A stretch of DNA of 64,000 nt from a candidate division WOR-3 bacterium (GCA_039801905.1 JBDRVQ010000001.1:29635-93634), one strand, 5' to 3'; positions 1,977-48,719 are shown, counted from the first letter of the stretch. Numbers and translations: made by a program. The notes: generated from the letters alone by a model not told the origin.

Positions 1977-2070
1977 GTCATAATTCTAACAATAATTTCC
2001 AATTTTTCAATGGTGGAAGGATGAGCAGAAATTGTGCCGGAGAGGAAGATTTACCGAAATGGAACTGAAA

Positions 2071-2530
2071 ATTTAGTGTCAGAAAATGGGGGGTATTTCC
2101 GTATTTATTATAGAGGGCTATGAAGAAGTTAAAAGAAATTATTAAGGTAAGTTATTGGGTTCTAATCCCAACCCTTATCTCAGAAGAGAGATTAAGGAGG
2201 TGTTATGAGATAATTAGCACTTAATAAAAATGGCATTAAATCATAAGACCTTTATCAAACAGGAGGGGTTTATCTTTATAAAAAGGGGTGTAGCATACAG
2301 GGGATGGTATCAGGGATTTAATGGAAGGGATAATAGAAGTTTTAATAAAAGGCGTAATTTTAGACTTAATCGGAGATTTAATAAAGGGTTTAATCAAGAA
2401 TTTAATAGAAGGTCTAAAAGAGGATATAAAGAGAAGGATAATCAGGAGCCTAAGCCAAGGTATAATCCAGAGCCTAATTAAAGGTTTAATCCGAAGTCTA
2501 AATGGAAGCCTAATCCTAAGAGAAACTTTA
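2071..2530 (+). repeat. Modular intergenic element copy 1: leader (TATTTCCGTATTTATTATAGAGGG ... GGGTTCTAATCCCAACCC), conserved core 2261-2315, then about 17 x 12-nt T-A-A-T-phased tandem units 2322-2526
   Basis: Direct sequence comparison with the copies at 33008-33582, 56588-57735 and 19030-19440 (inverted). The 12-nt period is visible as TTAAT/CTAAT/ATAAT every 12 nt. Confidence 0.8.
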
Positions 2531-2676
2531 AGGCAGAGAGATTATTCGGAACGGATATACTCGGAGGCGTGTTAATTTTGGTTGCGGTCATATATCAAAT
2601 AAGAGAGAGAAATTGGAGATATTGGTAGTGATTGGGGTAGATAGTGAAGGGAAAAAGAGGTTATTAGCGATTCACC

Positions 2677-14136: not shown

Positions 14137-15048
14137 GACCATCTCCTTCGCCCATTTCCGACAAAGTCTTATCGCTTCTTCCATCCCCCGGGAATCTGCC
14201 ACCCCCTTCCCCGCGATGTCAAAGGCGGTGCCGTGCAAAGGAGAGGTACGAATGAAGGGAAGACCTAAGGTGGTATTTATCCCTTTACCCTTGCCGATTG
14301 TTTTCACCATTATCATCCCCTGGTCATGATAGGGGGAAATAAAACCATCGTATCTCTTATAATAAAAGAGAAAGGAATCGGCTGGTAAAGTCCCTACGAT
14401 ATCAATTCCTAAATCTTTTAGCCTCTTTATTCCTTTCGCCATCTCCTTCTCTTCTCCCCGGGAAAATTCTCCACCGTGGGGATTGAGAGAGAAGAGACCG
14501 ATCCTTGGTGATTCAATCCCCTCAAGCCGATGGAGGAAATCATAAAGGAGAAGGCCCTTTTCCACTACCCAACGAGTTTTAATCCGAGAAGGTACTTCTT
14601 TCAAAGGACAATGTAAGGTGAGAAAGGCAATCTTTATCTTCTTATGATAGGCTAAGAAACAATAATTTCTCACCCCAAACTCCTGGGCGAAGAATTCGGT
14701 CTGGCCGGGATAAGGGAAGCCAATTCGGTAGAGGTTGCTCTTAGAAATGGGAGCGGTAACTATCCCTTTCGCCTCTCCCTTCTTTATTAAAGAAACGCCA
14801 ACCTTTAAGCCCTCCCAGGCAAATTGAGCGGTCTTCCGATCCGGTTTGCCAAAGGTAAAATCAATCCCCGGTAGAAAGTCTAAAAGATACGGTTCAAAAT
14901 CAATCGCTATCTTTAGTTTTTCTCTCAATTTTGTCAAAAGAACCCGAGCACCAATAATCTTCACTTCCTGGGGTGGGAATTTAGCAATCGCCTTTAAGAC
15001 AACCTCCGGACCAATCCCTGTTATCTCACCTAAGGTGACAACCACCAC
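14128..15048 (-). CDS. pdxA: 4-hydroxythreonine-4-phosphate dehydrogenase
   Basis: GLPFIRTSPLHGTAFDIAGKG and HDQGMIMVK motifs. The ORF extends to 15150 but a GTG at 15048 fits the PdxA N-terminus (VVTLGEITGIGPEV) and avoids overlap with the upstream gene. Start is uncertain. Confidence 0.75.
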   Translation of the reverse strand: MVVVTLGEITGIGPEVVLKAIAKFPPQEVKIIGARVLLTKLREKLKIAIDFEPYLLDFLPGIDFTFGKPDRKTAQFAWEGLKVGVSLIKKGEAKGIVTAPISKSNLYRIGFPYPGQTEFFAQEFGVRNYCFLAYHKKIKIAFLTLHCPLKEVPSRIKTRWVVEKGLLLYDFLHRLEGIESPRIGLFSLNPHGGEFSRGEEKEMAKGIKRLKDLGIDIVGTLPADSFLFYYKRYDGFISPYHDQGMIMVKTIGKGKGINTTLGLPFIRTSPLHGTAFDIAGKGVADSRGMEEAIRLCRKWAKEMVSG

Positions 15049-18864: not shown

Positions 18865-18937
18865 TGGGTCGTGCAGGATTCGAACCTGCGGCCACCGGAT
18901 TAAAAATCCGGTGCTCTGCCACCTGAGCTAACGACCC
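18865..18937 (-). tRNA. tRNA-Lys (anticodon UUU)
   Basis: Cloverleaf read from the sequence: 7-bp acceptor stem GGGTCGT/ACGACCC, anticodon stem CCGGA/TCCGG with loop TTTTTAA, T-loop GGTTCGAATCC. No encoded CCA. Confidence 0.85.
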
Positions 18938-28229: not shown

Positions 28230-28242
28230 GCACCCGTTTATA

Positions 28243-28257
28243 GCAATTATTGTGCCA
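28243..28257 (-). promoter_or_regulatory. sigma-54 (RpoN) promoter: TGGCAC-aataa-TTGCT, exact -24/-12 consensus, oriented toward the T9SS/TonB operon
   Basis: Reverse complement of agcaattattgtgcca. Chance expectation in 128 kb of two-strand sequence is about 0.1. Intergenic and correctly oriented. Confidence 0.6.
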
Positions 28258-28363
28258 CTGAAATTCTATCGGATAAATCCCCATTTTCTCCAAATAAAAG
28301 AAGGTTCTGTGCCAATCTTTACTCAGAAAGCCAAATCTTTGCACACTTGCCAAAGAAGCCCCC

Positions 28364-33007: not shown

Positions 33008-33582
33008 ATTAAATAAGTTATTATAAATCAAAGGCTTATAAAAAAGGGGGAAATTTAGTGTCAGAAATTGGGGGGTATTTCCGTATTTATTATAGAGGGC
33101 TATGAAGAAGTTAAAAGAAATTATTAAGGTAAGTGATTGGGTTCTAATCCCAACCCTTGAAGAGAGATTGAGGAGGTATTATCGGGTAATTAGCACTTAA
33201 TAAAAATGGCATTAAATAATAAAAAACTTTATCAAACAGGAGGGGTTTATCTTTATAAAAAGGGGTGTAGCATACAGGGGATGGTATCGGGGATTTAATG
33301 GAAGGCATAATCTAAGGCATAATTTTAGGCTTAATCGGAGTTTTAATAGAGGGTTTAATTGAGAATCTAATAAATACTCTAAAAGAAGTTATAACCGGCG
33401 GTATAATCAGAAGCCTAATTCAGAGTTTAATAGAAAGGATAATAAAGAGTTTAATCATGTGTCTAATTAAGGGTTTAATCCGAAGGGAAAATAGAAACCT
33501 AATTGAGAATGATTAGTGGAGAAGAATAATCTTTTCTCTTTGAATAGAGCCCTCGCTTTCCATCCGCTCCCAATAAATGGGT
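33008..33582 (+). repeat. Modular intergenic element copy 2: far-upstream module 33008-33050 (shared with copy 3), leader 33051-33237, core 33238-33292, 12-nt T-A-A-T array 33298-33510, tail 33490-33582 (shared with copy 4)
   Basis: Direct alignment to copies 1, 3 and 4. Confidence 0.8.
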
Positions 33583-33778: not shown

Positions 33779-35278
33779 ATGGCAAAAATCTACTACAATT
33801 TTATTGATGGGAAATGGGTAGAGAGTAAAACAAAAAGGACCTACGAAAATCGTAATCCCGCCAACTACGAAGAGGTGATTGGCGTTTTCCCTTCTTCTAA
33901 TGCGGAAGATGTTGACTTGGCGGTAAAGGCGGCAAAAAAGGCTTACCAGCACTGGCGGAAGGTCCCACCCCCGAAAAGGGGAGAAATCCTCCGCAAAGCG
34001 GGTGAGATTCTTTTAGAAAGGAAAGAAGAGATCGCTCAGATTATGACCAGAGAAATGGGAAAGGTGCTAAAAGAGACCAGAGGCGATGTGCAAGAAGGGA
34101 TTGATACCGCCTTCTATGCGGCTGGAGAAGGGAGGAGATTGTTCTCCTTCACCACCCCCAGTGAATTACCAAATAAGGTCTGTATGGTCTATCGCCAACC
34201 GATAGGCGTCTGGGGAATTATCACCCCCTGGAATTTCCCCTTAGCAATTCCTTCTTGGAAAATCTTCCCGGCTCTTTTATGCGGCAATACCGTGGTCTTC
34301 AAACCCGCCACTGATACCCCAGCCACCGCTTTCCTTTTGGTTGAAATTTTAATGGAGGCCGGATTGCCCGAAGGGGTTGTCAATTTAGTCTTCGGCCGGG
34401 GTGGCGAAGTCGGTGAAGCATTACTTAGCCATCCCGAAATCTCCGGCATCTCCTTCACCGGTTCTTCAGAAGTGGGGAGAAGAATTGGGGAAGTCTGCGG
34501 CCGGACCTTAAAAAGATGCTCCTTAGAATTGGGTGGGAAAAATGCCCAGATTGTTCTGGCTGATGCCGATCTCAATTTAGCCTTAGAGGGTGTGCTCTGG
34601 GGCGCCTTCGGTACTACCGGCCAGAGATGTACCGCTACCTCCCGACTCATCTTAGAGGAGAAGATCTACGAGCAGTTTATTGAAATGCTAATTGAAAGGA
34701 CAAAGAAATTGAAATTGGGTAACGGCTTAAAGGAAGATACCGACGTTGGACCTTTGATTAGCGAAAAGCAGAGGGAGACGGTACACCAATATGTGGAGAT
34801 TGGGAAGAAGGAAGGGGCGAAGTTAGTCTGTGGTGGTAAACCTTACCAAGAGGGAGAATGCGCCAAGGGCTATTTCTATGAACCAACAATTTTTATTGAT
34901 GTGAAGCCGGAGATGACCATTGCCCAGGAAGAGATCTTCGGTCCCGTTCTTTCCGTAATTAAAGCGAAAGATTTAAAAGAAGCGATTTCTATCTTAAATA
35001 AGACCCGCTACGGCCTCTCTTCCGCCATTTACACCCGAGATGTGAATAAGGCATTTACAGCAATCTCCGAAATTGAGGCGGGGATTACCTATGTCAACGC
35101 CCCCACAATCGGTGCGGAGTGCCACTTGCCTTTCGGGGGGGTGAAAGATACCGGCAATGGACATCGGGAAGGTGGCTGGACGGTTTATGATATCTTCTCG
35201 GAGTTGAAGACGGTTTATATTGACTACTCCGGCTCTCTCCAAAAGGCACAGATTGATACCTGGCAAAAGAGAGATTAA
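33779..35278 (+). CDS. NAD(P)-dependent aldehyde dehydrogenase
   Basis: ELGGKNAQIV catalytic Glu motif and GQRCTATSR catalytic Cys motif. Confidence 0.9.
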   Translation: MAKIYYNFIDGKWVESKTKRTYENRNPANYEEVIGVFPSSNAEDVDLAVKAAKKAYQHWRKVPPPKRGEILRKAGEILLERKEEIAQIMTREMGKVLKETRGDVQEGIDTAFYAAGEGRRLFSFTTPSELPNKVCMVYRQPIGVWGIITPWNFPLAIPSWKIFPALLCGNTVVFKPATDTPATAFLLVEILMEAGLPEGVVNLVFGRGGEVGEALLSHPEISGISFTGSSEVGRRIGEVCGRTLKRCSLELGGKNAQIVLADADLNLALEGVLWGAFGTTGQRCTATSRLILEEKIYEQFIEMLIERTKKLKLGNGLKEDTDVGPLISEKQRETVHQYVEIGKKEGAKLVCGGKPYQEGECAKGYFYEPTIFIDVKPEMTIAQEEIFGPVLSVIKAKDLKEAISILNKTRYGLSSAIYTRDVNKAFTAISEIEAGITYVNAPTIGAECHLPFGGVKDTGNGHREGGWTVYDIFSELKTVYIDYSGSLQKAQIDTWQKRD

Positions 35279-36840
35279 AGGTTATATTCAATAATCTTTT
35301 TCCTTAAAGTCTCGCGATGGATACCTAAAAGTTCGGCGGCCCGGCTAATCTGGCCGTTGGTCTTTGCCAGCGCCTCCTTAATCGCCTTCTTCTCAATAAT
35401 TTGGAGGTTTAAGGTGGCAAAGCTCTTCTCAATCTCTTCTTCCTTCCCTTCCTCCCGCTTTTGGAGAAAACGCATCATACCCAAGGTGGGTATGAGGTGG
35501 TCAATGTCAATCTCTTGGGCATTCTCGGCTAACGCCCTTTCGTAAGCCCTTTCAAGGATGTTGCGCAAGGTTCGGACGTTACCCTCAAATAGTGAGTTTT
35601 CCCCTTTGAGATAGTCATTGATTAAAGTGAAAAGGAAAGAATGACCAGAAGGAGAAAGGGGGATCAGTTTCTTGCCGGGGAGGGCGGTAGCAATCCTCCT
35701 GATGAAGAAGTGAGAAAACCGGTCAAGATCCCTTTCCACAACCGTTGGCGCCTCGTTACCCCACCTCTCTTTAAGGGAAGGGACAAGGAGACAATGTTGA
35801 AAGAGTCGGGAATAGAAGTCGGGTCTTAAAGTTTGGGAGAGTTTTTCCAGTGGTTGATTGGTGGCGGCGATAATCCGGATATCAATCTCCCTCTCCCAAG
35901 AAGCCCCCAAACGTTTTATCCTTTTGTACTCCAATGCCCTTAATAACTTAATCTGAATCTCAGATGATAGTTCACCAATCTCATCTAAGAAGACGGTTGA
36001 GGTATTAGCGGATTCAAATATCCCTTCCCGGGGTAAAACCGCACCGGTGAAGGCACCCCTTTCGTGACCGAAGAGTTCGTCTTCAATCAGGTTATAGTCT
36101 AAAGCGGCGATGTTGACAGTAAGGGGCTCTCTCTTCTCCGCCTTCTCCTTCTCAAATCTTAAAGAGAGGCGGTGGATGATGCGGGCGACCAGTTCCTTCC
36201 CCACTCCGGGTTCGCCTAATAACATCACCGTCGCATCCGAAGGAGCGATCTTCTCAATCTCCCCCACTACATAACTCATCAAACGGGATTCGCCAATCAC
36301 AAAGTTGAACTCCTCTTCCCAATTCTTTTTCTTCTCTTCTCCTACGGGTCTTAAAGCGAAGAAGTCAATCTTGCGGACAACCGAGGGATAAAAATTCTCA
36401 CCCACCGCACTCATCGGGACGAAGGTTGCCCTTCCGTAACCCGGACCCACTAAAAGGTTAGCGAACTTTTTTAGAGAGGCGATACCCACCCGTAAGGAAA
36501 GGAATAGGACCGGGACGATTTTATCAATCTTCCGGAGGGCACTGAAGATTATAAATCCCTGTAAAGCCTTAACATCATAAGGGGCAACAAATTCCATCCC
36601 CCACTCCTCAGGGGTGAGGAGTTCTTCATCTTGAAGGTGGGTGAAATCAATATCCTGAACGACTAAAGAAACAAACTTCCCCCTATTCTTCCTATACCAG
36701 TCAATCAGTTCTTTGCCGTGGCGGAAATGGAGAAATTCAAATTCGGAAAGGAGACGACCCTCTTGGTAATCCCGAATCTGTTCCATTAAAGTGAGATAAC
36801 TCTCTCTCAAATCATCACAAATTAAGATGTAAGGTTTCAT
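35275..36840 (-). CDS. sigma-54-dependent transcriptional activator (bacterial enhancer-binding protein) with atypical N-terminal receiver-like domain
   Basis: AAA+ LLGEPGVGKELVARIIH, the GAFTGA sigma-54 contact motif, and C-terminal Fis-type HTH (QISRAAELLGIHRETLRKKI). Confidence 0.85.
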   Translation of the reverse strand: MKPYILICDDLRESYLTLMEQIRDYQEGRLLSEFEFLHFRHGKELIDWYRKNRGKFVSLVVQDIDFTHLQDEELLTPEEWGMEFVAPYDVKALQGFIIFSALRKIDKIVPVLFLSLRVGIASLKKFANLLVGPGYGRATFVPMSAVGENFYPSVVRKIDFFALRPVGEEKKKNWEEEFNFVIGESRLMSYVVGEIEKIAPSDATVMLLGEPGVGKELVARIIHRLSLRFEKEKAEKREPLTVNIAALDYNLIEDELFGHERGAFTGAVLPREGIFESANTSTVFLDEIGELSSEIQIKLLRALEYKRIKRLGASWEREIDIRIIAATNQPLEKLSQTLRPDFYSRLFQHCLLVPSLKERWGNEAPTVVERDLDRFSHFFIRRIATALPGKKLIPLSPSGHSFLFTLINDYLKGENSLFEGNVRTLRNILERAYERALAENAQEIDIDHLIPTLGMMRFLQKREEGKEEEIEKSFATLNLQIIEKKAIKEALAKTNGQISRAAELLGIHRETLRKKIIEYNL

Positions 36841-38639
36841 CGAGCAATTATCCCCTTAATGATTCCTACTAAATCCAAAAAGGTTACCCACAACTTCTCA
36901 TATTCTTCCTTTCCTCCTCCATAAGCGAAATAGTTGGGGTAGCGAAAGGCAAGCATCTGCAAATCTTCTGCCAGATGACCTTCTTTTAGATTGGGTTCGC
37001 TTTGGGCATCGGAATAAAAAGAAAATTTTACCTTTCTTGCCCAATCGGTTGGGTGGAGGTAAGAGATTTTAATTTGGGAAAAGGATTGGGCGTAACGGAA
37101 ATGGTCGGAGAAGATATGGCTGAAGACACCCTCAATTGTCTTGTCGAGGAATAGGAGGACATCCGCTGCCAACGGGTCAATGGCGACGCAATCCCAGGAT
37201 TGACCAATCTCTAAAATCCTCCCTTCCACAAATTTGGTGAGCAGATGGAGGTGGGGAGAGGAGAGAAATTTGGCTAAAAAACTCTTATACTCTTTCTCAT
37301 CCCAGATCTGGGGAAGGGAATTTCCGGGGGGTAGGCGGTAGCGCTTAAATATCTCATCCAATTTCCGGAGGGCAGCGGGAAAATTACCCTTTACCACAAA
37401 GTTGTGGTCTAAGGTCACGACCTCAGAGGCGAGGGTCACAATCTCCGAAACATCCCTCTTCCCTAGTTTCCTCTTTTGGCCACTCTTTTTTAAGAGAAGA
37501 AGAGCGAAGATGATAGGTAGGGAAATTAAGAGGAGGAGGGAGAACGCCCTTAACACTCTTTGCCAATAGTAGGCGGTCACGAAAGTTCTTCGTAATTGCC
37601 CAATGGTCTTCTCTTCACTCCAAAGTTGGTCGTTTAAGAGATTGGCGACCAAAAATACCCTCTCCCCTTCTTCCCAATCTCTCTTCTTGGTTAAAAGAGA
37701 AAAGAGCGAGAGCATCTTTTCCTTCTTCAATAAGAATTCCCGGCGCTCGTTATAAAAAATTTTTAATCCTTCGGGTTGCAGGAGGGCAAAGTCAAGAAGG
37801 CCGTCACCATTGATATCAGAAAGGGAAAGGTCTTTGATCTCCAATTGGCAGCAGGGCACCTTAAAACCTGAGGGATAGATAAGATACAAATCCTTTTCCA
37901 TTTGGCAGAGGAGAAAGGGAGAGAGTACTTTTATCACCACCTTCCCTCTTTGACCAATAATCGGAATGCCGGGGATAGGAGAACTCTTTTTTCTCTGGTA
38001 GCGCACCAAAAATAAATCAACTCCTCTTCTTTTAAGATAATATATGGTGTCATTTAAATTGAAAACCGCAAGGATTTTTTCTCCTTTCAGGGTCAAATTT
38101 TTTTCCCATCGCCCGCTTGGCAATTCGAACTCGTAGATTCCCGAACTTTCTGCTAGGTAAAACTTTTGTCCTTTCCAAGAGGCGCTGTGGACTTCGGAAA
38201 GGGGAAAAGAGAAGAGTTCTCTCATCCCTCTTTCCGTGAGGTGGTAAAAAGAACTCCCGGTCGGCTGGATAATAGCAAAATGGAAGGGAGAAACCGAGAA
38301 AGAGGAAATAATCTTTTCGTTTAAGATTTTTTCCACCTTCGGCTGGAAGTTATCAAAAGAGAGGTGATAAATCCCATCCTCAGAGACAAGGTAACAACTA
38401 TTAGAATAGACATAGGAATTGATCACCCTCTTCGGGAAATGATGGGTGGAGAGAATCTTGCCGGATAAATCCGTAATAATCATCTCGCCGTTTTTAGTAA
38501 ATAGAACAATCTCTTTCTCCTTGTCTCCTCTGATATTAAGAAATTGGCAGTGGTAGAAATCTTTTCGGGGAAGGGGAAGAAAATACGCCGAAAAGAATTG
38601 GGAAAAGATAAAGAGAATGGAGAAGGAAGGATGAATCAT
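36837..38639 (-). CDS. hypothetical membrane protein: exported FG-GAP/beta-propeller-like N-domain, one TM helix, about 200-aa cytoplasmic domain of unknown type
   Basis: Signal sequence, DINGDGLLDFALL FG-GAP-like motif, TM segment (VLRAFSLLLLISLPIIFALLLL). Stop overlaps the sigma-54 activator start. Confidence 0.5.
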   Translation of the reverse strand: MIHPSFSILFIFSQFFSAYFLPLPRKDFYHCQFLNIRGDKEKEIVLFTKNGEMIITDLSGKILSTHHFPKRVINSYVYSNSCYLVSEDGIYHLSFDNFQPKVEKILNEKIISSFSVSPFHFAIIQPTGSSFYHLTERGMRELFSFPLSEVHSASWKGQKFYLAESSGIYEFELPSGRWEKNLTLKGEKILAVFNLNDTIYYLKRRGVDLFLVRYQRKKSSPIPGIPIIGQRGKVVIKVLSPFLLCQMEKDLYLIYPSGFKVPCCQLEIKDLSLSDINGDGLLDFALLQPEGLKIFYNERREFLLKKEKMLSLFSLLTKKRDWEEGERVFLVANLLNDQLWSEEKTIGQLRRTFVTAYYWQRVLRAFSLLLLISLPIIFALLLLKKSGQKRKLGKRDVSEIVTLASEVVTLDHNFVVKGNFPAALRKLDEIFKRYRLPPGNSLPQIWDEKEYKSFLAKFLSSPHLHLLTKFVEGRILEIGQSWDCVAIDPLAADVLLFLDKTIEGVFSHIFSDHFRYAQSFSQIKISYLHPTDWARKVKFSFYSDAQSEPNLKEGHLAEDLQMLAFRYPNYFAYGGGKEEYEKLWVTFLDLVGIIKGIIAR

Positions 38640-38640
38640 T

Positions 38641-39855
38641 CTATTCCCACTGGTAAATTGCCAACCCCTCCCCTACCGTCAAAAACCCGTTGCCCAAAGG
38701 GAGGCAGGCATAAACCACATCCTCCAAATCGGAGGCCTCGCGGGTCCTCAGTTGGGGCGATAAACGGTAGAACCAATCTTCCCGTCTTCCTTTCTCCTTT
38801 TCCAAGATGAGATTCACCATAATCTCCGTCCCTTCGTCGGTTTCAAAGACTCCCAAAAGATAAACGATCACCCGGTGATAAGAAAGGGAGGGGGCAAATC
38901 TTTTTCGCCAAAGAACTTTCTCCCCTTTCATCACCAAAATTCCTCCTTCCCTTCCTGAATAGGTTAAAACCTTTTCCTTTTCTCCGTCATTATCAAAATC
39001 GTAAAGAGAAAAATCGTTAAAGAAAATCCCGTTGCCGCCTAATCCCTTCCTCTCCAATTCCTTTCCGTCTTCCGTCTGGTAGGTAAGAAGCTGGCTTTTC
39101 TTATTGGTAGGATCAAAGAGCAAAAGAAAAAGGGTTTTCCCATCCGTCCTGCAAAAGCCTTGCGCCATAAAATCATTAAACCCAAGTTCTTGATCCCAGT
39201 TATTTCTCCCTCGGGCGTAAATTTTCCTCTCACCCAAAATAAATAAAGTGCCTTCCCCCCTTCCCAAGAACCTTCCCGCGGATAACTTTTCTTGGGAGAT
39301 TATCTTCCCTTCGGGTAAGGAATAAGAAAAAAGGAAACTTTCCTCCCCTTTCCTCTCTAATGTCCAAACCCTCATTTTTCCTTCTTGCTCGGTAACAAAG
39401 AAATCTTTCAGCCAAAAACTATCCGCGAGGCGCAACCGATAGCGACGAGTTAAACTTCCCCTCTCTCCTTTAACAAAAAAGAAGATCTCTTTCCCATTGG
39501 TGAGGGTTAGAAAATCCTTTTCCAAAAAAGAGAAAATCTTGGGACGTGAAGAAGAGAAGGGTAATTTCTTTAAGAGGGAGAGGGTAGGGGAAAGGATATA
39601 GACATTGGGTAGATTGGCTGAGTAAAAAACAATCTCTTCCTCCCTCCCGCCCCAAAAATCTCCGCGCTGAAGGAGAGCGGGAGAAGAAGAGAGGGAGAAG
39701 GGGAGGTTTTCTGTAGAAAATAGTCCCTCCGCTATCCAATTACAGACTAACGTCCTATCTCTAACCTTTAATTTAGGTAAATCCTGTATTTCCCTCTTAC
39801 ACCCAAAGGGGAGTGTCAGAAAACTTAAAAATAGGAGAAAAAAGGAGAAAATCAT
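38641..39855 (-). CDS. hypothetical lipoprotein/exported repeat protein (FG-GAP/VCBS-like)
   Basis: Signal peptide with Cys (LPFGC); FNDFSLYDFDNDGEKE motif. Confidence 0.5.
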   Translation of the reverse strand: MIFSFFLLFLSFLTLPFGCKREIQDLPKLKVRDRTLVCNWIAEGLFSTENLPFSLSSSPALLQRGDFWGGREEEIVFYSANLPNVYILSPTLSLLKKLPFSSSRPKIFSFLEKDFLTLTNGKEIFFFVKGERGSLTRRYRLRLADSFWLKDFFVTEQEGKMRVWTLERKGEESFLFSYSLPEGKIISQEKLSAGRFLGRGEGTLFILGERKIYARGRNNWDQELGFNDFMAQGFCRTDGKTLFLLLFDPTNKKSQLLTYQTEDGKELERKGLGGNGIFFNDFSLYDFDNDGEKEKVLTYSGREGGILVMKGEKVLWRKRFAPSLSYHRVIVYLLGVFETDEGTEIMVNLILEKEKGRREDWFYRLSPQLRTREASDLEDVVYACLPLGNGFLTVGEGLAIYQWE

Positions 39856-41246
39856 TTCCGAGTTTTAACTCTCCCCTCCCGGGAGAAAACTCCCCGGTAG
39901 GTGTGCCAAAGATGAGGACTGTGAACCCGACCCGCCGGAAAAGCGAAAATCCTCTCATCCCAAGAAGTGGCTAATAAGATCCCATCCCGGGTGAGGGTTA
40001 AAGATGGGGTGATGAAAAACCCTTTCTCACTATAGGCGATCTCCTTCCGAAAGAGAAGTTGCCCATCTTCCCGCAGGGAATAGAGATACCCGTCATCGGA
40101 GAAGAGAAAGACCCGACCGTCTTCGGTCACAACCGGACTGGCGATGATTTCGTCATCGGTAGTAAAAAATGGGATTAAACCACCGTACCTCCCTTTTTTA
40201 TAAAGGACACCATCATCCGCCCCGAAGAGAAAAGTATCTCCCCGAAAAACTCCTTCACATCTTATCGGATCCTCTTCGGGGGTGGCTGCCTTCCAGAGCA
40301 ACTCCCCTTTTTTATTCAAGGCGTAGAGAAAACCATCTTCACAACCTGCCAGAAGATAACCATCTGGACTCAGTTGGCAGCCGGTGAGGAAAGGATCTTC
40401 GTTGGGAGTTTGCCAAGAGAAAAGCATTTTGCCATCCCTCGTGAAGGAGTAGATACCATCCGCGGTCAAAAAGATTTGACCTTTTTCGTCAATCGTCACC
40501 GGAGAAGGTTCACTAGCGACCTTCTTTTTCCATAGTAACTTACCTCCCAAAGAAAGGGAGAATAATTGGCCATCATCGGTAACGAAGAAGATTCTTTCCC
40601 CATCCGTAGCCGCTGGTTGGTAAATCTCGCTACCCGCCGAAAATTGCCAGAGCAGTTTGCCGGTAGTATCAAGGCAATAGAGGGTTGAATCAAGGGCACC
40701 GAAGATAACCTTATCCCTAAAAACTATGGGGGTGGCGTAAACCGAATTTCGGGTAGAAAAAGAGAAACGGAAAGCCCCATCCTTCCGAAAAGAGATTAAG
40801 GCATTATCTTCTAACCCCAAATAGAGATTGTCGTTTTCGTCTAAGGCGGGGGTAGAAATCGTAGCGGAAGGTAAAGGGATTTCAAAAAGGGCAAGCCTCT
40901 CTTTAATCTCAATCGCCAACGATTCAACCGCGGTAAAACCTTTCTTACTGTGCCCTGCAACCTTCAGCCAGTAAACCCCCGGTTTTTTATACTGATGTCC
41001 CACTTCAATCTCCCCTGAAACAAAAGAAGAGCGATAGACCTCTCCGTCGCCAAAGAATACTTCATAAACTAAGGTCTCGGGCTTCTCTGTGGAAATGGTA
41101 AAAAGCACCTCCTCTGTGGTATCACCAAAGAGGGGAACTTTCTTTAAATTCAAGACCGGCTGAGCAAAAACGAAAGGATAAGTGAAAAAGATAATTATTA
41201 GAGGAAAGGAAAAAGGGATGAGGATTTTCTCTTTTCTAACTGCCAT
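39852..41246 (-). CDS. exported PQQ-like beta-propeller repeat protein with N-terminal Ig/PKD-like domain
   Basis: Signal peptide. Repeated ...DG.L..L...GKLLW... PQQ/BamB-type blades. Confidence 0.6.
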
Positions 41247-41727
41247 CTTCCCTCCTTTTTTTCTTAATCTCTATCTTTTCTACCTTGATCTTTGCCTCTC
41301 TTAAAAATTTATTCGCCAGTTGGTCATAATAAGGTTCTAAGAAGCAGATCCTTTTAATCCGGGCGTTAATTAGCATCTTGACACAGGTGATACAAGGTTG
41401 ATGGGTAGAATAAAGAGTGGCGCCGGAGACATCAATTCCAAAAGCAGCGGCTTGTAATAAAGCATTCTGCTCCCCGTGGAGACCCCGGCAGAGTTCAATC
41501 CGCTCGCCCGGTTTTAAACCCAGCCTCTCCCGCAAACAACCTGTCTCCGCACAATGCTTTAAGCCGGTGGGTGCTCCGTTATAACCGGTGGCTAATATCC
41601 TTTTATCCTTCACCAAAATCGCCCCCACCTTTCGCCGGAGACAGGTGGAACGTTCGGAGACCATCTGGGCAATTTGGATAAAGTATTCATCCCAAGAGAG
41701 GCGGCTATCTTTCTCCTTTCTTCTCAT
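41236..41727 (-). CDS. dCMP (deoxycytidylate) deaminase
   Basis: HAE...PCxxC zinc-binding motifs ([21 protein letters not shown]). Confidence 0.85.
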
Positions 41728-42584
41728 TTTAGGAGATAGTGGGCGATATTCGCCTTTTTATCTAAAACCGGTCTGATCTTCCCATTAGGAGAAGTGGCAA
41801 TCGTTGTTACCCCCGGCCCGTGGCCCGCGACGACGCAGTTGGCATGGACCACAACCCCAATGGAGACGGCGCCGCGTCTTAAACACCGGCCGTAGGTATT
41901 GTCTGTGTCCAAAAGGCAGACAATATCCCCAAAACGGAGTTCGTTCAGCCGAAGTTTTCTTACGAGATCTTGGTCTTGCGTCGTGATATCATAATCACCA
42001 GTAGAGGTGGTAACCCCGCCCAAACCGGAGCCCATCACCTCCGGGGGAAGGATATGGGTTACCGGAAAATGAAGAAACCCGTTTTTAATTTTCAGGTCAA
42101 ATTTTTCCAATAAATTGGGGTCAAGATTATAAAATTTAACGGAAGGTAAGCCCAAAATCTCCAAACCCTGCCCCACTGCCTTAATCTGAATTTTATCCCC
42201 AATCACCAATTTCTCTAAGGTCTCTTCGGGAAAATAGACTAAAATATGCTCAATCCCTCCGTGTTTACCGGTGACAAAACCTTCATCCCCCTTCGCCTCC
42301 CCAGAAACCACCTTCGCGGAATTACCGATACAGGCATAAGTGTTGAGCGCCCGATTTTCGTCTTCATCCTTCACCCGGATGGAAACACCCGGTTCTAAGT
42401 GGTCGCCCACCCAACCGAAGACGGGATCACCAATTTTTATATTATAGACAATTCCCCCGGTTCCGGGAAAGACCTTCGGTTCTCCTTTATAATCAATGGT
42501 GTAAGGTTGGCGTCTTCGGGGAGGGGCAACCTCTCCCAGGACAGAGATCCAGGGTAAAAATTCTTTATTGGTCTTTATCTTCAT
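41724..42584 (-). CDS. conserved hypothetical protein (DUF4438-like)
   Basis: No catalytic motif recognised. Sits between the 2-oxoacid oxidoreductase genes and the dCMP deaminase. Start uncertain (ORF extends to 42596). Confidence 0.4.
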
Positions 42585-43110
42585 AGTTCCCTCCAAAGAA
42601 ATAACCTTCCTTTAACGCCTTAATATTAACTTCTAAGGTCTTACCCTTCATCTTCTCTTTAAGAACCGAGCAGAGATTGTCTAAAGAGACAATCTCTGTG
42701 CGGCGGGCAAAATATCCCAAAATGACCATATTTGCCACCTGAGGCGATTGGCATACCTCTTGGGCAATCTTTTGGGCAGGGATGGGAAAATGATTCCTTT
42801 CCCATTTCCAATTGCAGATGGTAGCATCCAAAAAGACTTTTGTCTCTTCGCTAATCAAAGGAATGATTTTCTCATAACCTTCCGAGGCAAGGGAAATTAA
42901 ATATTCAGGTTTTAAAACAAAAGGGGAGGAAATTTCCTTTTCGGAAATCATCACATCACAACTCACATCTCCTCCCCGAGCCTGAGAAGAGTAGCCGGCA
43001 ATGGCACTGGCGAATTTCCCTTTAAGAATGGCGGCGTGAGCTAAAATCTCCCCCGCCAGAACAATTCCTTGTCCTCCTTTTCCGACGATTTTAATCTCAA
43101 TCATATTCAC
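42565..43110 (-). CDS. 2-oxoacid:ferredoxin oxidoreductase, gamma subunit
   Basis: IVGKGGQGIVLAGEILA motif typical of POR/KOR/VOR gamma subunits. Confidence 0.85.
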   Translation of the reverse strand: MNMIEIKIVGKGGQGIVLAGEILAHAAILKGKFASAIAGYSSQARGGDVSCDVMISEKEISSPFVLKPEYLISLASEGYEKIIPLISEETKVFLDATICNWKWERNHFPIPAQKIAQEVCQSPQVANMVILGYFARRTEIVSLDNLCSVLKEKMKGKTLEVNIKALKEGYFFGGNYEDKDQ

Positions 43111-43864
43111 CGATGATAATTTTCCCTTTTAAATCCCCTTTTCCCATCACCTTTGCTTTCTCATAAGAAATTACCACCTTCTTTATCTCTTGGAAGTAGT
43201 CGTAAATGGAAAAAAGTCTATTTCGCCTCCCAAATTGGGTGACACAGGGAGAGATAACATCAATGAAGGAAAATCCCTTACTCGTCAAAGCCTTGACGAT
43301 AGCCTTGATCAAAGGTTTCGTATGGAAGACCGTCCAGCGGCTCACATAATCCGCCTCACAACTCTTAACCAATCGGCACAGATCAAAGGGGCGTTCTTCG
43401 TTGCCAAAAGGGGTTGTCTCCGTGAGACAACCTTCCGGGGTGGTTGGGGAAACTTGCCCCCCGGTCATCCCGTAGATAGAATTATTAGCACAGATCACCA
43501 CCAGCGGCAGATTCCTCCTTGCGGCGTGGATTAAATGATTCCCCCCAATCGCCGCCAAATCCCCATCCCCAGAGATGACAACGACTTTTAAGTCGGGTCG
43601 GGTGAGGCAAACTCCGGTGGCGTAGGCTATTGCCCGACCGTGTAGGGTATGTAAGGTATCAGCCTTAAAGTGGGGAGAAGGGATCCAGGCACCGCAACCG
43701 ATCCCGGAGACAAAAACCATTTTGGTGAAATCTAAGTGACCGGAGGTGGACAACTCGTCAATCGCCCGCAAGATGGCTTGCAGCAAAATCCCATGGCCAC
43801 AACCCGGACAAAAAGGTGTTGGAAAGACCTCCTCTCTCAAATATTTATAAAGATGGCGGCTCAT
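43097..43864 (-). CDS. 2-oxoacid:ferredoxin oxidoreductase, beta subunit (TPP-binding)
   Basis: CPGCGHG and GDGD TPP-binding motifs. Confidence 0.85.
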   Translation of the reverse strand: MSRHLYKYLREEVFPTPFCPGCGHGILLQAILRAIDELSTSGHLDFTKMVFVSGIGCGAWIPSPHFKADTLHTLHGRAIAYATGVCLTRPDLKVVVISGDGDLAAIGGNHLIHAARRNLPLVVICANNSIYGMTGGQVSPTTPEGCLTETTPFGNEERPFDLCRLVKSCEADYVSRWTVFHTKPLIKAIVKALTSKGFSFIDVISPCVTQFGRRNRLFSIYDYFQEIKKVVISYEKAKVMGKGDLKGKIIIGEYD

Positions 43865-44991
43865 AAAATCTCCTCAATCTTTTTCATCACCTCCCAGGGG
43901 TAAATCGCCTCTCCTTTCGTCTTAAAAAGCCCAAGGATCTCCTTTCCGGGAAGGATCCGTTGCACCTCGTTAATCAATTGGCCACAATTCATCTCGCAGA
44001 CCAGAATCTTTCGGGCAGGAATTTTCTTTAACTCCTCCTCCGGAAAGGGCCAGATGGTGATGGGCCGGAAGAGGCCAACTTTAATACCTTCTTTCCGTAA
44101 ACTATCCACCGCGTAATAACTACTCCGCGCGGTGATGCCGAAGGCAATAAGACAAATATCACAATCTTCTGTGAAATAGGTTTCAAAGCGAATAATTTCC
44201 CCTCTATTCTTATCAATCTTTTCGCAAAGACGCCGGTTTAATCTATCCTGCACCTCTGGGTGATAGACCTTTCTCACCCCCCATTCGTTGTGGGTTGAGC
44301 CGGTAACTAAAAGTGCCTCCCCTTCTCCGAAGGCGGGCATCGGCGGAATTAATTCTCCCCCAAAAGGTGGCTTACCTTTTTCTTTATTCCGGTCAAAAAT
44401 TACTACCTCCGGTTTCACCAAAAGGGTCTCCTTCAAATGGCCAATAACCTCATCCCCCAAAAGGATGACCGGAACTCTGTATCTTTCGGAAAGATTAAAG
44501 GCGAGGATGGTCAAATCGTACATCTCCTGAACCGACCAGGGAGAAAGGGCAATGATCCGGTAATCACCATGAGCACCCCATCTTGCTTGCATAATGTCAC
44601 CCTGGCCGGGTCTTGTCGCTTGACCAGTAGCCGGTCCCTGCCTCTGGATATTAACGATGACAATTGGGGTTTCGGTCATTAAGGCATACCCAATCCCTTC
44701 CAACATCAGAGAAAAACCCGGACCAGAAGTGGCGGTCATCGCCTTCACCCCCGACCAGGAGGCCCCGATACAGGCACTGATGGAACCAATCTCATCCTCC
44801 ATCTGGATGAAAAAACCACCTACTTCCTTCAACCTTTTTGCCATATGCTCCATAATCTCTGAAGAAGGGGTGATGGGGTAACCGGCATAAAACCGACAAC
44901 CCGCAGCTAATGCCCCTTCGGCACAGGCAATATTCCCCGCCAGGAAGTAGCGCTGGGGGGAAAGAAGCGCTTTTTCTATTCTTTCTGGCAT
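43861..44991 (-). CDS. 2-oxoacid:ferredoxin oxidoreductase, alpha subunit
   Basis: GNIACAEGALAAGC...YPITPSSEI N-terminal region. The ORF extends to 45051; the internal Met at 44991 is the likelier start. Confidence 0.8.
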   Translation of the reverse strand: MPERIEKALLSPQRYFLAGNIACAEGALAAGCRFYAGYPITPSSEIMEHMAKRLKEVGGFFIQMEDEIGSISACIGASWSGVKAMTATSGPGFSLMLEGIGYALMTETPIVIVNIQRQGPATGQATRPGQGDIMQARWGAHGDYRIIALSPWSVQEMYDLTILAFNLSERYRVPVILLGDEVIGHLKETLLVKPEVVIFDRNKEKGKPPFGGELIPPMPAFGEGEALLVTGSTHNEWGVRKVYHPEVQDRLNRRLCEKIDKNRGEIIRFETYFTEDCDICLIAFGITARSSYYAVDSLRKEGIKVGLFRPITIWPFPEEELKKIPARKILVCEMNCGQLINEVQRILPGKEILGLFKTKGEAIYPWEVMKKIEEIL

Positions 44992-45170
44992 TTCTCCACC
45001 GTGATCGCCAAATCCGGGCAGAGGTATTCGCAGAGGAGACAACCGATACATTTCTCCTCGTGCGCCACCTTGGGAAGAGAAGCGTCTTTCTCAAAAACTT
45101 TTTTGGGACAGATTTGGTAGCAAAAAAGACAACCTTTACACCATTCTTTACGGATTGCGACCTTAAACAT
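44976..45170 (-). CDS. 2-oxoacid:ferredoxin oxidoreductase, delta subunit (2x[4Fe-4S] ferredoxin)
   Basis: Two CxxCxxCxxxCP motifs in 64 aa. Confidence 0.8.
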   Translation of the reverse strand: MFKVAIRKEWCKGCLFCYQICPKKVFEKDASLPKVAHEEKCIGCLLCEYLCPDLAITVEKCQKE

Positions 45171-45171
45171 C

Positions 45172-46371
45172 TTATCCCTTCGGAGTGAAAAAGGCCCCCG
45201 TGAAAAGTATTAAGCCGGTGCGATTATCCCGAATGGCAAAGAAGAAGGGACGATTGAATACAAGATGAAACCTTTCTGGGAGGGCGGTTAAAGCCATCTC
45301 TACCGAAGTGACCGCTGCCGCCTCGGTTCCCTCTTCTGTTATGCTGAGGTAGGTCTTATGCCGGACATCGTTAATAAATAATCCCCCTTCCCCGCTCATG
45401 CCAGTAAAATCCGCCTTCTTTGGATCAAAGGCAATTGCCATATTCATCCTTTTTAAGATTTCTTTGAATGATTTTTCGTATGTCAAATGAATTCTGGGTA
45501 AAGAGATCTCCCCTTCTCTCTCATCAAACTCCTTTAAGACTTCTTCCCATCTTCCCCCTAACCATTGAACCAAACTGGCAAGGGGAAAGTTAGTATCGGG
45601 TAGAAAAAGGTAAATACTCACTTCCCCCTTTCCATAAGGCAAAGCAACTGCCGCCCAATTTTCCTTTTTGAGATAAAGAAACCTTCCCGATTGGGACATC
45701 AGCAAAATTTTCTCTTCCCCTCGGGGGGAATAAAAGAAATCTTCCTTCGTTTTCTCTTTTGGAAACTCCCTTTGCCACTTCCCTTGAAAGTAAACCGCAT
45801 TCAAAATGAATAGCACCACATTTCTCTCAATTTTTTCTATAATTTTTTCTATCTTCCCCTTGGTATTTTTCCTAACCCACTGATTAATCTCTTTTATCGC
45901 TGAGGGCTGGGAGAAGTCTAAGGTTTTTATCTTTGCTTTGAAGAACTTTCTATTTCTTTCTAAGAATTCCCTCTTTAAGGAAATTCCCTTTCTCGCCCAC
46001 AAAGAGTTAGCAATTTTTAATTCTACCTGGGGAATAGGTCTTCTTAGGAATTGGTGGAGATCGCTTAAGGCGGTATTCAAGGAGTCTAACTTCATCTCTT
46101 TTAAGTTAAGGGTTTTAGCCATCGCCTCTTTTGTTTCCCCTCCCGCTCCGTTATAAGTGCTCACCAGAGCAAGATAAACACTGATTGGAGAGATGAAGAT
46201 ATTCTCATTAAAATCTTCTGCCATTAACTCCGAAAAGAGGGAAAAACCAAACCGATTATTCCCTTGGACAAACAGAGGTGAAACCCCGGCCCTTAGCCAA
46301 GAGAAGAGAAGAAAGGAGAGAAAAACCCAGCCCTTCAACTTTTCCTTCTTCCCTTTCCAGTTTTTAAGCAT
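45172..46371 (-). CDS. serpin (serine protease inhibitor), secreted
   Basis: Hinge EEGTEAAAVT and C-terminal FNRPFFFAIRDNRTGLILFTGAF serpin signature; signal peptide. Confidence 0.85.
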   Translation of the reverse strand: MLKNWKGKKEKLKGWVFLSFLLFSWLRAGVSPLFVQGNNRFGFSLFSELMAEDFNENIFISPISVYLALVSTYNGAGGETKEAMAKTLNLKEMKLDSLNTALSDLHQFLRRPIPQVELKIANSLWARKGISLKREFLERNRKFFKAKIKTLDFSQPSAIKEINQWVRKNTKGKIEKIIEKIERNVVLFILNAVYFQGKWQREFPKEKTKEDFFYSPRGEEKILLMSQSGRFLYLKKENWAAVALPYGKGEVSIYLFLPDTNFPLASLVQWLGGRWEEVLKEFDEREGEISLPRIHLTYEKSFKEILKRMNMAIAFDPKKADFTGMSGEGGLFINDVRHKTYLSITEEGTEAAAVTSVEMALTALPERFHLVFNRPFFFAIRDNRTGLILFTGAFFTPKG

Positions 46372-46447: not shown

Positions 46448-47410
46448 ATGAAAAAGAGATTATTAGTTTTAATTTTTCTCACCACTGGTTTATTGGGAAA
46501 GGAAGAGTTTCCCGCTTTATTCCCGATTCGGCAAAACTTCCGCTACGGATTGATTGACTCTACGGGAAAAATTGTCGTCAAACCACAACTTGATGGAATT
46601 GATGACTTCTCAGAAGGGATGGCAGTGATTAGAATCAATAACCAGTGGGGTTATATTGATGCCCGGAACTGGCAGGTCTTAAAGACTAAGTTTGAACAGG
46701 TTGGCCGTTTCTCCGAAGGGAAGGCGCGTGTCTTATACAAAGGGAAATGGGGTTATATTGACCGAAATGGGAAATTTGTGATCAAGCCCCAGTTTGAGTT
46801 CGCCGGTGATTTTCGGGAAGGGAAGGCCGCGGTGGGTATTGGGGGCAAGGTTGGTTACATTGATTCTACTGGTAAATTTATTATCAGTCCCCAGTTTTTC
46901 TCCACCTTCAACTTTTCCGAAGGGAGAGCGGGTGTTTTAGTTGGTAATAAACTCGGTTATATTGATTCGACCGGCAAGGTGGTGATTAAACCGATCTTTG
47001 ATTTCATCTGGGACTTTAAGGAAGGTTTGGCTCGGGTAATGGTCAATAGGAAATGGGGTTATATTGACCGAAATGGGAAGTTTGTGATTAAGCCCCGGTT
47101 TGATGAGGCATTTGATTTTTCGGAGAGTCTGGCCGCGGTCCGGGTGAAGGAGAAAATCGGTTATATTGACAAAAAGGGTAAATTTGTTATCAAACCGAAA
47201 TTTAAAGCCGGTGGCGAATTTTCAGAAGGACTTGCCCCGGCCTTAGCCGATAGTCTTTGGGGTTATATTGATAAAACTGGTGAGTTTAAGATTCAACCGA
47301 GTTTTGAAATCGCCTATCCCTTCTTTCGGGGTTTGGCAAAAGTGCAAATGAAAGGAAAGATCGGTTATATTGATAGAAGGGGAATTTTTATCTGGGAGCC
47401 AACGGAGTAG
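46448..47410 (+). CDS. WG-repeat (KWG) containing lipoprotein/exported protein
   Basis: Eight tandem units of about 37 aa with KWGYIDxxGKxVIKPxF. Confidence 0.8.
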   Translation: MKKRLLVLIFLTTGLLGKEEFPALFPIRQNFRYGLIDSTGKIVVKPQLDGIDDFSEGMAVIRINNQWGYIDARNWQVLKTKFEQVGRFSEGKARVLYKGKWGYIDRNGKFVIKPQFEFAGDFREGKAAVGIGGKVGYIDSTGKFIISPQFFSTFNFSEGRAGVLVGNKLGYIDSTGKVVIKPIFDFIWDFKEGLARVMVNRKWGYIDRNGKFVIKPRFDEAFDFSESLAAVRVKEKIGYIDKKGKFVIKPKFKAGGEFSEGLAPALADSLWGYIDKTGEFKIQPSFEIAYPFFRGLAKVQMKGKIGYIDRRGIFIWEPTE

Positions 47411-47429: not shown

Positions 47430-48719
47430 TTAGACCTTTTGGATATGGCAGGAGCAAGAGATGCAAGGGTCGTAAGCCCGGACGACCATCTCCAACTCCA
47501 ATTTTGCCTTCTCTTCTCCCACCGAAGAGGAGAATAAATTTGCCGCCGCCACTGTGAGGTGTTTCTCTATTGCATTATAATTTTGCGCGGTGGGGATGAT
47601 TAAATCCGCATTGGTGCATAAACCGTCCTTAAATTCGTAATAGTGAAAGAGACTACCCCGGGGCGCTTCTACTGCTCCCACCCCTTTCCCTTCCCCTTTT
47701 TTAATAGGCACAATCTTCGGAGGTCTTTTAACTTTTAAAATCTTATCGGCGGTATTAATGATCTCCTCTAAGGCAAAAACGATTTCAATCGCCTGCGCCA
47801 AGTTGTTATACAATGGGTTTCTAATCCAACTCAGGCTGTAGCATTTTTGAAATGCCTCGTGGGCGGCGCCGTGTAACCTCTCCCCTAAGAGATTCATTCG
47901 GGCAAGGGCACCAACGAGATAAGGCTTTTCCCGATAGAGGGTCCTCTTAGCGGTGGAATGGGGATAAATCCGTTCCTTGATTGCGGTTCGGAATTCTTCC
48001 ACCGTTCGGTCATCCCCATTAGAAATCATTACCGTATCACCCCAAAACCCGTAGGCATCGGTTGGTGGTTTTAGACAAACGAAAAGCACCCCTTCTTCGG
48101 CATAGGTTGAGTAGTGAAGGTTGCGGAGAAGTTCGGTTGTCCTTATCGCCTCAGGAAGTAGTTTTTCGGCACCGTCCCTTATTGATTTTATCTCCTCTTT
48201 ACTTAAAAAGCGACCAAAACCACCGATGGTTGGATTCTCTCCGTGAATCATTCTCCCAGCCACCGCCTCCATCACATAATTACCAAATTTCTTTAAGCGT
48301 AGTCCGATACCCACTTCTTCGGGATATTTTTCTGCTAAGGCAATCGCATCCGGATAGCCCAAAAAATCCGGGAGGGCGAGGAAGAAGATGTGGAGACTGT
48401 GACTTTCAATCATCTCTCCGTAATGCATCATATTCCGTAATAGGGTAACCTCAGGCGGCACGTTCACCGCCAAAATCTTTTCTAAGGCTCTGATCGCCGC
48501 GTAGCGGTGGGAGATGTTACAGATGGCGCAAATCCGGGGTACGATATTTAACACTTCTGACGCCTCTTTCCCCAAAACCAAAGTTTCAAATAAGCGGGGC
48601 CCTTCCGGAATTTCAAAACGCACCTCCTTCACCTTCCCGTTTCGGAGCCGGACATAAATATTTCCGTGCCCTTCCACCCGGGCTACACTATCAATCCTTA
48701 TCTCCTTTCCTTCCTTCAT
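47430..48719 (-). CDS. hydA: [NiFe] hydrogenase large subunit, group 3b (sulfhydrogenase alpha-like)
   Basis: N-terminal RxCxxC (RICAICNISH) and C-terminal DPCISCSCH Ni-binding motifs. Gene order beta-gamma-delta-alpha. Confidence 0.85.
   Translation of the reverse strand: MKEGKEIRIDSVARVEGHGNIYVRLRNGKVKEVRFEIPEGPRLFETLVLGKEASEVLNIVPRICAICNISHRYAAIRALEKILAVNVPPEVTLLRNMMHYGEMIESHSLHIFFLALPDFLGYPDAIALAEKYPEEVGIGLRLKKFGNYVMEAVAGRMIHGENPTIGGFGRFLSKEEIKSIRDGAEKLLPEAIRTTELLRNLHYSTYAEEGVLFVCLKPPTDAYGFWGDTVMISNGDDRTVEEFRTAIKERIYPHSTAKRTLYREKPYLVGALARMNLLGERLHGAAHEAFQKCYSLSWIRNPLYNNLAQAIEIVFALEEIINTADKILKVKRPPKIVPIKKGEGKGVGAVEAPRGSLFHYYEFKDGLCTNADLIIPTAQNYNAIEKHLTVAAANLFSSSVGEEKAKLELEMVVRAYDPCISCSCHIQKV

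Follow-up and report, generated by a model that had tools for sequence, protein, structure and literature searches.

A conserved membrane sensor and sigma-54 activator in candidate division WOR-3: a proposed, strongly diverged two-component-type pair accompanied by exported beta-propeller proteins

How is a sigma-54-dependent activator controlled when no recognisable histidine kinase is encoded beside it? The question is raised by a string of four genes in a stretch of 64,000 nucleotides (nt) of DNA, here called the window, from a candidate division WOR-3 bacterium (GCA_039801905.1, JBDRVQ010000001.1:29635-93634). The string consists of four consecutive minus-strand open reading frames (ORFs), at 39852-41246 (464 amino acids, aa), 38641-39855 (404 aa), 36837-38639 (600 aa) and 35275-36840 (521 aa), joined in this order by a 4-nt overlap, a 1-nt gap and a 4-nt overlap; ORF calling confirmed in this respect a preliminary description of the locus. 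The last gene (35275-36840) encodes the only bacterial enhancer-binding protein (bEBP) of the window, and the 600-aa protein encoded ahead of it is a membrane protein, hereafter the sensor. According to the preliminary description no histidine kinase was present, and the cytoplasmic domain of the 600-aa protein was possibly a novel transmitter acting on the bEBP by protein-protein contact. We conclude that the sensor and the bEBP are probably a strongly diverged two-component-type pair, whose transmitter and receiver families are unannotated at the sequence level. Of the joint claim that the two proteins belong together in function and that the transmitter is folded like a kinase we are highly confident. 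The parts of the two proteins are as follows.

37563-38639, minus strand: sensor residues 1-359, with a hydrophobic leader, a beta-propeller-like ectodomain (about residues 28-263) and a helical juxtamembrane stalk (about residues 280-359).
37479-37562, minus strand: single transmembrane (TM) helix of the sensor, residues 360-387, by Kyte-Doolittle hydropathy, then the basic stretch KKSGQKRKLGKR.
36837-37460, minus strand: cytoplasmic transmitter of the sensor, residues 394-600, a helical hairpin with His412 followed by an alpha/beta domain of the histidine-kinase CA type (GHKL).
36343-36840, minus strand: N-domain of the bEBP, residues 1-166, with a putative receiver-like (beta-alpha)5 pattern.
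35275-36342, minus strand: output part of the bEBP, with a sigma-54-interaction AAA+ domain (181-347), a lid region and a Fis-type helix-turn-helix (481-519).

The TM helix, with a maximum of 2.83 in a Kyte-Doolittle 19-residue window, is the only such segment in the 600-aa protein, which agrees with the single TM described earlier, and the ectodomain is modelled as a beta-propeller. The protein as a whole matched no family in Pfam or NCBIfam. It matches, at 100% identity, a "hypothetical protein" from a metagenome-assembled genome of candidate division WOR-3, and the named members of its family are likewise "hypothetical protein" entries of candidate division WOR-3, one partial member being labelled only "bacterium". 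An exhaustive HMMER search with the 600-aa family returned 35 cluster representatives, five of which are related over their full length; in about twenty others the similarity is confined to the TM-proximal helix and the cytoplasmic domain, which are carried on other ectodomains or on none. Identity to the relatives amounted to 32-49% in the ectodomain, 53-67% in the cytoplasmic transmitter and 68-84% in the bEBP, so that the ectodomain diverges faster than the transmitter and the bEBP, and the evolutionary rates fit a sensor.

Structure prediction of the C-terminal domain of the 600-aa protein, suggested in the preliminary description, yielded a histidine-kinase DHp-CA fold, the CA part being modelled as a Bergerat (GHKL) alpha/beta sandwich. 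The fold was taken from a model built on a 28-sequence alignment; a full-length AlphaFold model from 3 sequences, with a predicted local distance difference test (pLDDT) score below 50 in the cytoplasmic domain, was not used for the transmitter. Foldseek aligned the whole transmitter module to DHp-CA structures, and the matches include DivL, RetS and ChpT, with genuine kinases scoring above NifL and well above ChpT. In the model, the DHp-like hairpin is formed by two helices, H4-22 and H27-40, both of them short. His412 (codon 37404-37406), within the non-canonical H-box context DHNFxxKGN, is invariant in 28/28 sequences, although their overall identity is only about 25%, and belongs to an invariant set that also comprises K417, H508, D512, T531, W533, D544, K582 and D589. 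In the hhalign register against HK853 (probability 0.45%), H508 and D512 fall on the N-box residues N376 and N380, and R515 and Y516 on K383 and Y384.

The transmitter was recognised through structure comparison, as the sequence searches were all blank: none of the 28 members matched a HisKA-type or HATPase_c Pfam family at E <= 5, hmmsearch with the 3- and 28-sequence profiles found no PDB match, and hhalign against HK853 and DesK, with template sequences entered by hand, was non-significant (probability 0.45% and 0.09%, respectively). The earlier statement that the cytoplasmic domain has no kinase motifs is thus true by sequence, but it fails at the level of the fold. The DHp-CA fold, the invariant His and the conserved residues at the N-box and G1 positions also contradict the assertion that no histidine kinase is present. 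Instead of a novel kind of transmitter, the domain is, as modelled, a cryptic and highly diverged histidine-kinase module.

The bEBP was identified by the Pfam families Sigma54_activat (PF00158; E = 1.5e-49) and HTH_8 (PF02954; E = 6e-13), with the Walker A (GEPGVGKE), Walker B (VFLDEIGE) and GAFTGA motifs intact, and no NCBIfam equivalog reached its cut-off. Residues 1-180 gave no Pfam match. Across 12/12 aligned sequences, D9, D10, D63 (codon 36652-36654), D65, S115 and P142 of the N-domain are invariant; D9, D10 and D63 provide an acidic pocket and S115 a Ser after beta4, and an insertion of about 24 aa follows the presumed beta3. When N-domain residues 1-160 were aligned by hhalign with CheY residues 4-126 in full-length register, the result was not significant (E = 0.06; probability 0.9%); in this non-significant alignment D9, D10, D63, S115 and P142 fall on CheY D12, D13, D57, T87 and P110. 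The set used consisted of six receivers, with sequences entered by hand. We infer from these features that the N-domain may have a receiver fold.

In order to follow the pair across relatives, 22 related loci were gathered; identities were read from the tblastn table, and the pairing was counted from those sensor loci with downstream DNA. In 15/15 distinct loci, which include the window and belong to four clades, the sensor gene is directly followed by a same-strand bEBP gene with the same N-domain, 40-78% identical to that of the window in all partner loci. The flanking genes are retained in the closest clade only: they encode SurA-like peptidyl-prolyl isomerases and acetyl-CoA enzymes in the related locus L013, a PTPS_related membrane protein and an acyl-CoA dehydrogenase in L005, and tRNAs and an asd-like gene product in L018. 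This profiling, also suggested beforehand, bears out the view that the genes form a conserved signalling module, since transmitter and bEBP N-domain are paired in all 15 distinct loci while the flanks differ. Of the two exported proteins encoded upstream, the FG-GAP-like family (that of the 404-aa protein) recurs in three clades and the PQQ propeller (that of the 464-aa protein) in two. Neither the transmitter nor the bEBP N-domain matched a well-characterised family with unrelated partners. As the sensor-bEBP pair is constant and the propellers are frequent companions, the core of the module consists of the sensor and the bEBP, accompanied by one or two exported propellers.

The genes had also been described as all start/stop coupled. 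Tight coupling is real, but it does not mark the boundary of the module, the upstream genes being equally coupled. The upstream neighbour, a dCMP deaminase gene (41236-41727), shares 11 nt with the 464-aa gene, and because the same coupling continues into the dCMP deaminase, DUF4438 and oxidoreductase genes, coupling alone does not define the module. The four genes could thus be merely packed together in a compact genome, with the bEBP controlled otherwise; coupling that runs on into unrelated genes would agree with this, as would the fact that the closest relatives keep the entire region and not the module alone. The distant clades (L013, L005 and L018), however, swap their flanks and yet keep the sensor-bEBP pair, as in 15/15 loci, and the absence of any functional link appears to us very improbable.

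Taken together, an invariant His near the TM helix, a kinase fold, an invariant acidic pocket in the partner and constant pairing point to a two-component system. We therefore favour, while giving it no better than an even chance, an envelope-sensing module the core of which would be a cryptic two-component system with phosphotransfer from His412 to Asp63. The 600-aa membrane sensor, in which one TM helix joins a periplasmic beta-propeller to a cytoplasmic transmitter of DHp-CA type, would pass a signal from the ectodomain through the TM helix to the transmitter, which would autophosphorylate at the invariant His412; the phosphoryl group would then move from His412 to Asp63 in the acidic pocket (D9, D10, D63, S115) of the bEBP N-domain, and the phosphorylated N-domain would release the AAA+ domain, which could then assemble and switch on sigma-54 promoters.

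A number of observations weigh against this scheme. On the side of the transmitter, (i) no sequence method (Pfam, NCBIfam, PDB hmmsearch, hhalign) detects a kinase, (ii) the Mg-binding Asn of the N-box is replaced by Asp (D512) and its first Asn by His (H508), (iii) the domain has no G2 glycine box, (iv) only about 10 residues lie between D544 and the next helix, giving a very short ATP lid, (v) in the hhalign alignment with HK853 the invariant D544, which stands at a strand end, misses the canonical G1 Asp by one position, and the Gly pattern DGxG is confined to a subclade, and (vi) the first helix is short (about 20 aa) and ends 3 residues after His412, so that the His is close to the hairpin turn, where a classical DHp has its phospho-acceptor His mid-helix. 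On the side of the bEBP, the residue preceding the invariant P142 is V, I, A or L and never the receiver Lys (CheY K109), the 12 N-domain members showed no Pfam Response_reg match at E <= 5 and no PDB sequence match, and the alignment that speaks for a receiver fold is the non-significant one given above. Finally, the 64-kb window holds no rpoN gene or RpoN box.

The rewritten N-box, the missing G2 box and lid, the odd position of the His and the missing receiver Lys keep alive an explanation close to the contact originally proposed, namely a pseudokinase partner switch resembling NifL-NifA, in which the kinase-fold domain would not phosphorylate but would bind the bEBP stoichiometrically, at the N-domain or the AAA+ domain, and keep it off or on according to what the ectodomain senses; a nucleotide or another ligand may then bind to the remodelled pocket and serve as an input to regulation. 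A kinase-like fold with degenerate ATP motifs fits such a pair, NifL itself possessing DH and GHKL domains, being non-phosphorylating and binding NifA stoichiometrically (PMC12998190). Yet His412 and D9/D10/D63/S115 are invariant despite identities across clades of about 25% in the transmitter and 40-45% in the N-domain, which counts against contact alone because such a mechanism does not require these residues. Moreover, genuine kinases outscore NifL and ChpT in the structure comparison, and the N-domain of NifA is a GAF domain and not receiver-like. NifL further differs in being cytoplasmic with PAS sensor domains, whereas the sensor of the module is membrane-bound with a propeller ectodomain and its bEBP keeps a receiver-type acidic pocket. 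On balance, we regard a partner switch as rather unlikely, though deserving serious consideration.

A transmitter acting solely as a phosphatase or phosphotransferase would make no use of ATP; it would either handle phosphoryl groups at His412, as ChpT and Spo0B do, or serve purely to dephosphorylate the bEBP, which would receive its phosphoryl group from acetyl phosphate or another kinase. The residues of the nucleotide pocket (H508, D512, D544) are, however, themselves invariant, suggesting that the pocket is in use; no second kinase is conserved among the neighbouring genes of the related loci, and ChpT scores well below genuine kinases. This explanation seems improbable to us.

The two-component system that we favour has its nearest counterparts in NtrB/NtrC, ZraS/ZraR and DctB/DctD, where the gene for a membrane sensor of DHp-CA fold likewise lies immediately upstream of that for a bEBP with a (receiver-like)-AAA+-HTH_8 arrangement, and where a His of the sensor and an Asp pocket of the activator are conserved as well. 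In contrast to these pairs, the members of the module lack any profile-detectable HisKA/HATPase_c or Response_reg domain; the transmitter has a His/Asp N-box, no G2 box, a very short lid and its His near the turn, and the N-domain is without the receiver Lys and carries the 24-aa insertion after beta3. DivL, RetS and ChpT share with the transmitter a DHp-CA fold with altered catalytic motifs. They are recognisable by sequence as HisKA/HATPase_c relatives, whereas the transmitter family is not and has its own set of invariant residues. Since censuses of two-component systems use the HisKA/HATPase_c and Response_reg profiles, the sensor-bEBP pair escapes both, and the signalling capacity of WOR-3 and related uncultivated lineages is thereby undercounted. 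The family also offers a natural experiment on the divergence of kinases and receivers, as the N-box has been rewritten and the lid and the receiver Lys lost, with the His and the Asp pocket remaining invariant.

The sensor is preceded by the genes of two exported proteins.

39852-41246, minus strand: exported 464-aa accessory protein, with a signal-like N-terminus, a weak PKD-like stretch and a PQQ_2/BamB-type beta-propeller.
38641-39855, minus strand: exported, lipoprotein-like, beta-rich 404-aa accessory protein of an FG-GAP-related family, by its leader, Cys19 and a chain of homology.

For the 464-aa protein, a signal peptide and PKD-like and PQQ propeller domains had been proposed, of which the hydrophobic N-terminal segment (residues 7-34) and the propeller (Pfam PQQ_2, BamB type; E = 5.6e-24) were recovered, but the PKD_4 match was weak (E = 1.5e-3) and fell under the Pfam cut-off. 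Beside the sensor gene, the gene of this PQQ propeller was found both in clade A (60-73% identity) and, with different flanks, in clade B (L009-L011 and L013; 33-35% identity). The 404-aa protein, previously described as lipoprotein-like with FG-GAP/VCBS motifs, does have a hydrophobic N-terminal segment followed by Cys19, a Cys kept in L001 and L003 too, but its own FG-GAP_3 match is not significant (E = 0.06). Its kinship to FG-GAP proteins is instead seen through a chain of homology, from the 404-aa protein to L013_407 (E = 1e-5), and from L013_407 to L018_517 (E = 1e-12), which has genuine Pfam FG-GAP repeats (E = 2.8e-17). Propeller repeats (PQQ/BamB-like, FG-GAP) are detectable, by profile or by fold, in the three extracytoplasmic parts. 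Both exported proteins are probably partners of the sensor on the outer side of the membrane, with an accessory or co-sensing role. Co-encoded extracytoplasmic accessory proteins are known for WalK, which has YycH and YycI, and for other kinases; those of the module differ in being beta-propellers (PQQ/BamB-like and FG-GAP-like) unrelated to YycH/YycI.

As to the targets of the bEBP, the window and the related loci provide the following candidates.

28242-28257, minus strand: exact sigma-54 consensus TGGCACAATAATTGCT, a candidate target; no other site in the window matches exactly, and this one lies, correctly oriented, in an intergenic gap of 171 nt.
L018 8621-8745, L005 13082-13252 and 13417-13610, and L014 2792-2985, same strand as the bEBP gene: candidate sigma-54 small RNAs, by promoter, fold and terminator.

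The search for a sigma-54 promoter suggested in the preliminary description thus recovered an exact site, located 50 nt upstream of an ATG at 28192, which is no more than a candidate for control by the bEBP of the module. It precedes an operon (28192-19472, minus strand) for two FlgD_ig surface proteins, an 823-aa TPR protein, ExbB, two ExbD, TonB and a third FlgD_ig protein. A published proposal reportedly links sigma-54 to the cell exterior, with which the surface-related content of this TonB operon agrees, and the promoter is a reasonable candidate target of the bEBP. Two other sites were rejected, namely a sigma-54-like site at 36959-36973, inside the sensor gene, with 1 mismatch and within the conserved GHLAEDLQ codons, and one at 58633, inside a coding gene. 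The sigma-54 promoters of the window, of L001 and of L018 were also compared with regard to a common upstream activator site, but no convincing motif was revealed. About 100 nt upstream of the promoter at 28242-28257 there is a palindrome, TCTTTGGCAAGTGTGCAAAGA, and just downstream of the TonB operon a tRNA gene (18865-18937, minus strand; Rfam RF00005, 75 bits).

In three distant relatives (L005, L014 and L018), a sigma-54-type promoter lies directly 3' of the orthologous bEBP gene on the same strand, being exact in L018 and having 1 mismatch in L005 and L014. In each case the promoter is followed by a structured RNA of 95-170 nt containing a CU-rich stretch, with an intrinsic terminator at its end. 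The two units of L005 are tandem paralogues, both with GGTT(T)AGCGACAAGCACGC. The z-scores of the folds are -4.4 for L018, -3.3 and -1.8 for L005, and -3.6 for L014, and none of the RNAs matched an Rfam family. These units are candidates for sigma-54-dependent small RNAs; no comparable promoter-RNA unit was seen 3' of the bEBP gene in the window, L012 or L013. In GlrK/GlrR-GlmY, too, a bEBP leads to a small RNA, and the small RNA genes adjoin the regulator genes. Likewise, LuxO is presented, in two papers on LuxO-Qrr, as a bEBP that activates sigma-54-dependent small RNAs (PMC4878744, PMC8043402). The arrangement in L005, L014 and L018 resembles that system, whereas the bEBP gene of the window is abutted by a convergent aldehyde dehydrogenase gene, and the RNAs of the relatives are predicted ones that match nothing in Rfam.

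The module ties exported beta-propeller proteins to sigma-54 control and, in some lineages, to candidate sigma-54-dependent small RNAs. We would suggest, as a speculation more doubtful than not, that the transmitter represents a new class, with a lid-less pocket having His/Asp for Asn/Asn and no G2 box, which would work without ATP-dependent autophosphorylation of the His and would control the bEBP through a receiver-derived domain, either by contact or by a different ligand or phosphodonor, the output in many lineages being the adjacent sigma-54 small RNAs. If true, this new transmitter class with its small RNA output would be an unrecognised envelope-to-small-RNA signalling circuit in uncultivated phyla.

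The neighbourhood of the module shows some further features. On its downstream side, the aldehyde dehydrogenase gene (33779-35278, plus strand) is convergent with the bEBP gene, the stop codons overlapping by 4 nt, and its product is 85-90% identical among the clade A relatives, a conservation higher than that of the module genes. As a conserved target of the bEBP it was rejected, since the exact sigma-54 site found ahead of it in L001 and L004 is missing from the window, L003, L007 and L008. Upstream, the tightly coupled block at 41236-46371 (minus strand) comprises the genes of the dCMP deaminase (ComEB-like), a DUF4438 protein and the gamma, beta and alpha subunits of a 2-oxoacid:ferredoxin oxidoreductase, beyond which, after a gap of 120 nt, there is a serpin gene; the block is syntenic in the closest WOR-3 relatives only. 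An exported 320-aa protein made of KWGYID-type repeats is encoded at 46448-47410 (plus strand), and the gene adjoining it at 47430-48719 (minus strand) is NiFe-hydrogenase large-subunit-like, by the NiFeSe_Hases Pfam annotation of the syntenic L001 gene.

A cassette of about 550 bp was found twice in the window (2040-2580 and 33050-33530, plus strand) and at 14940-15520 in L001. It consists of a highly conserved leader of about 270 nt with a 34-aa ORF (MKKLKEIIKVSYWVLIPTLISEERLRRCYEIIST), then an 84-aa protein of four-residue "GLIK"-type repeats (2321-2575). In the second window copy, MEGII is followed by an in-frame TAA, and the leader is better conserved than the repeat ORF. On the left flank of the first copy, an outward-facing sigma-54-like site, CGGCACAATTTCTGCT (2024-2039, minus strand), lies 48 nt before a cytidylate kinase-like gene, and on the left flank of the L001 cassette an exact sigma-54 site, TGGCACGATTTTTGC (14902-14916, minus strand), precedes the aldehyde dehydrogenase gene. 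The two sites align despite the different genes downstream of them; the second window copy is without such a site. Lastly, a 20-mer, CGGA(A/T)A..CCCC..TTTCT, occurs thrice in the window (2081-2101 and 33063-33083, minus strand; 28270-28289, plus strand), with one occurrence in each cassette copy and the third 13 nt ahead of the exact sigma-54 promoter. Its expected count of 0.15 is circular and not an independent test, the pattern having been derived from these same three sites, and the 20-mer may be a shared regulatory site.

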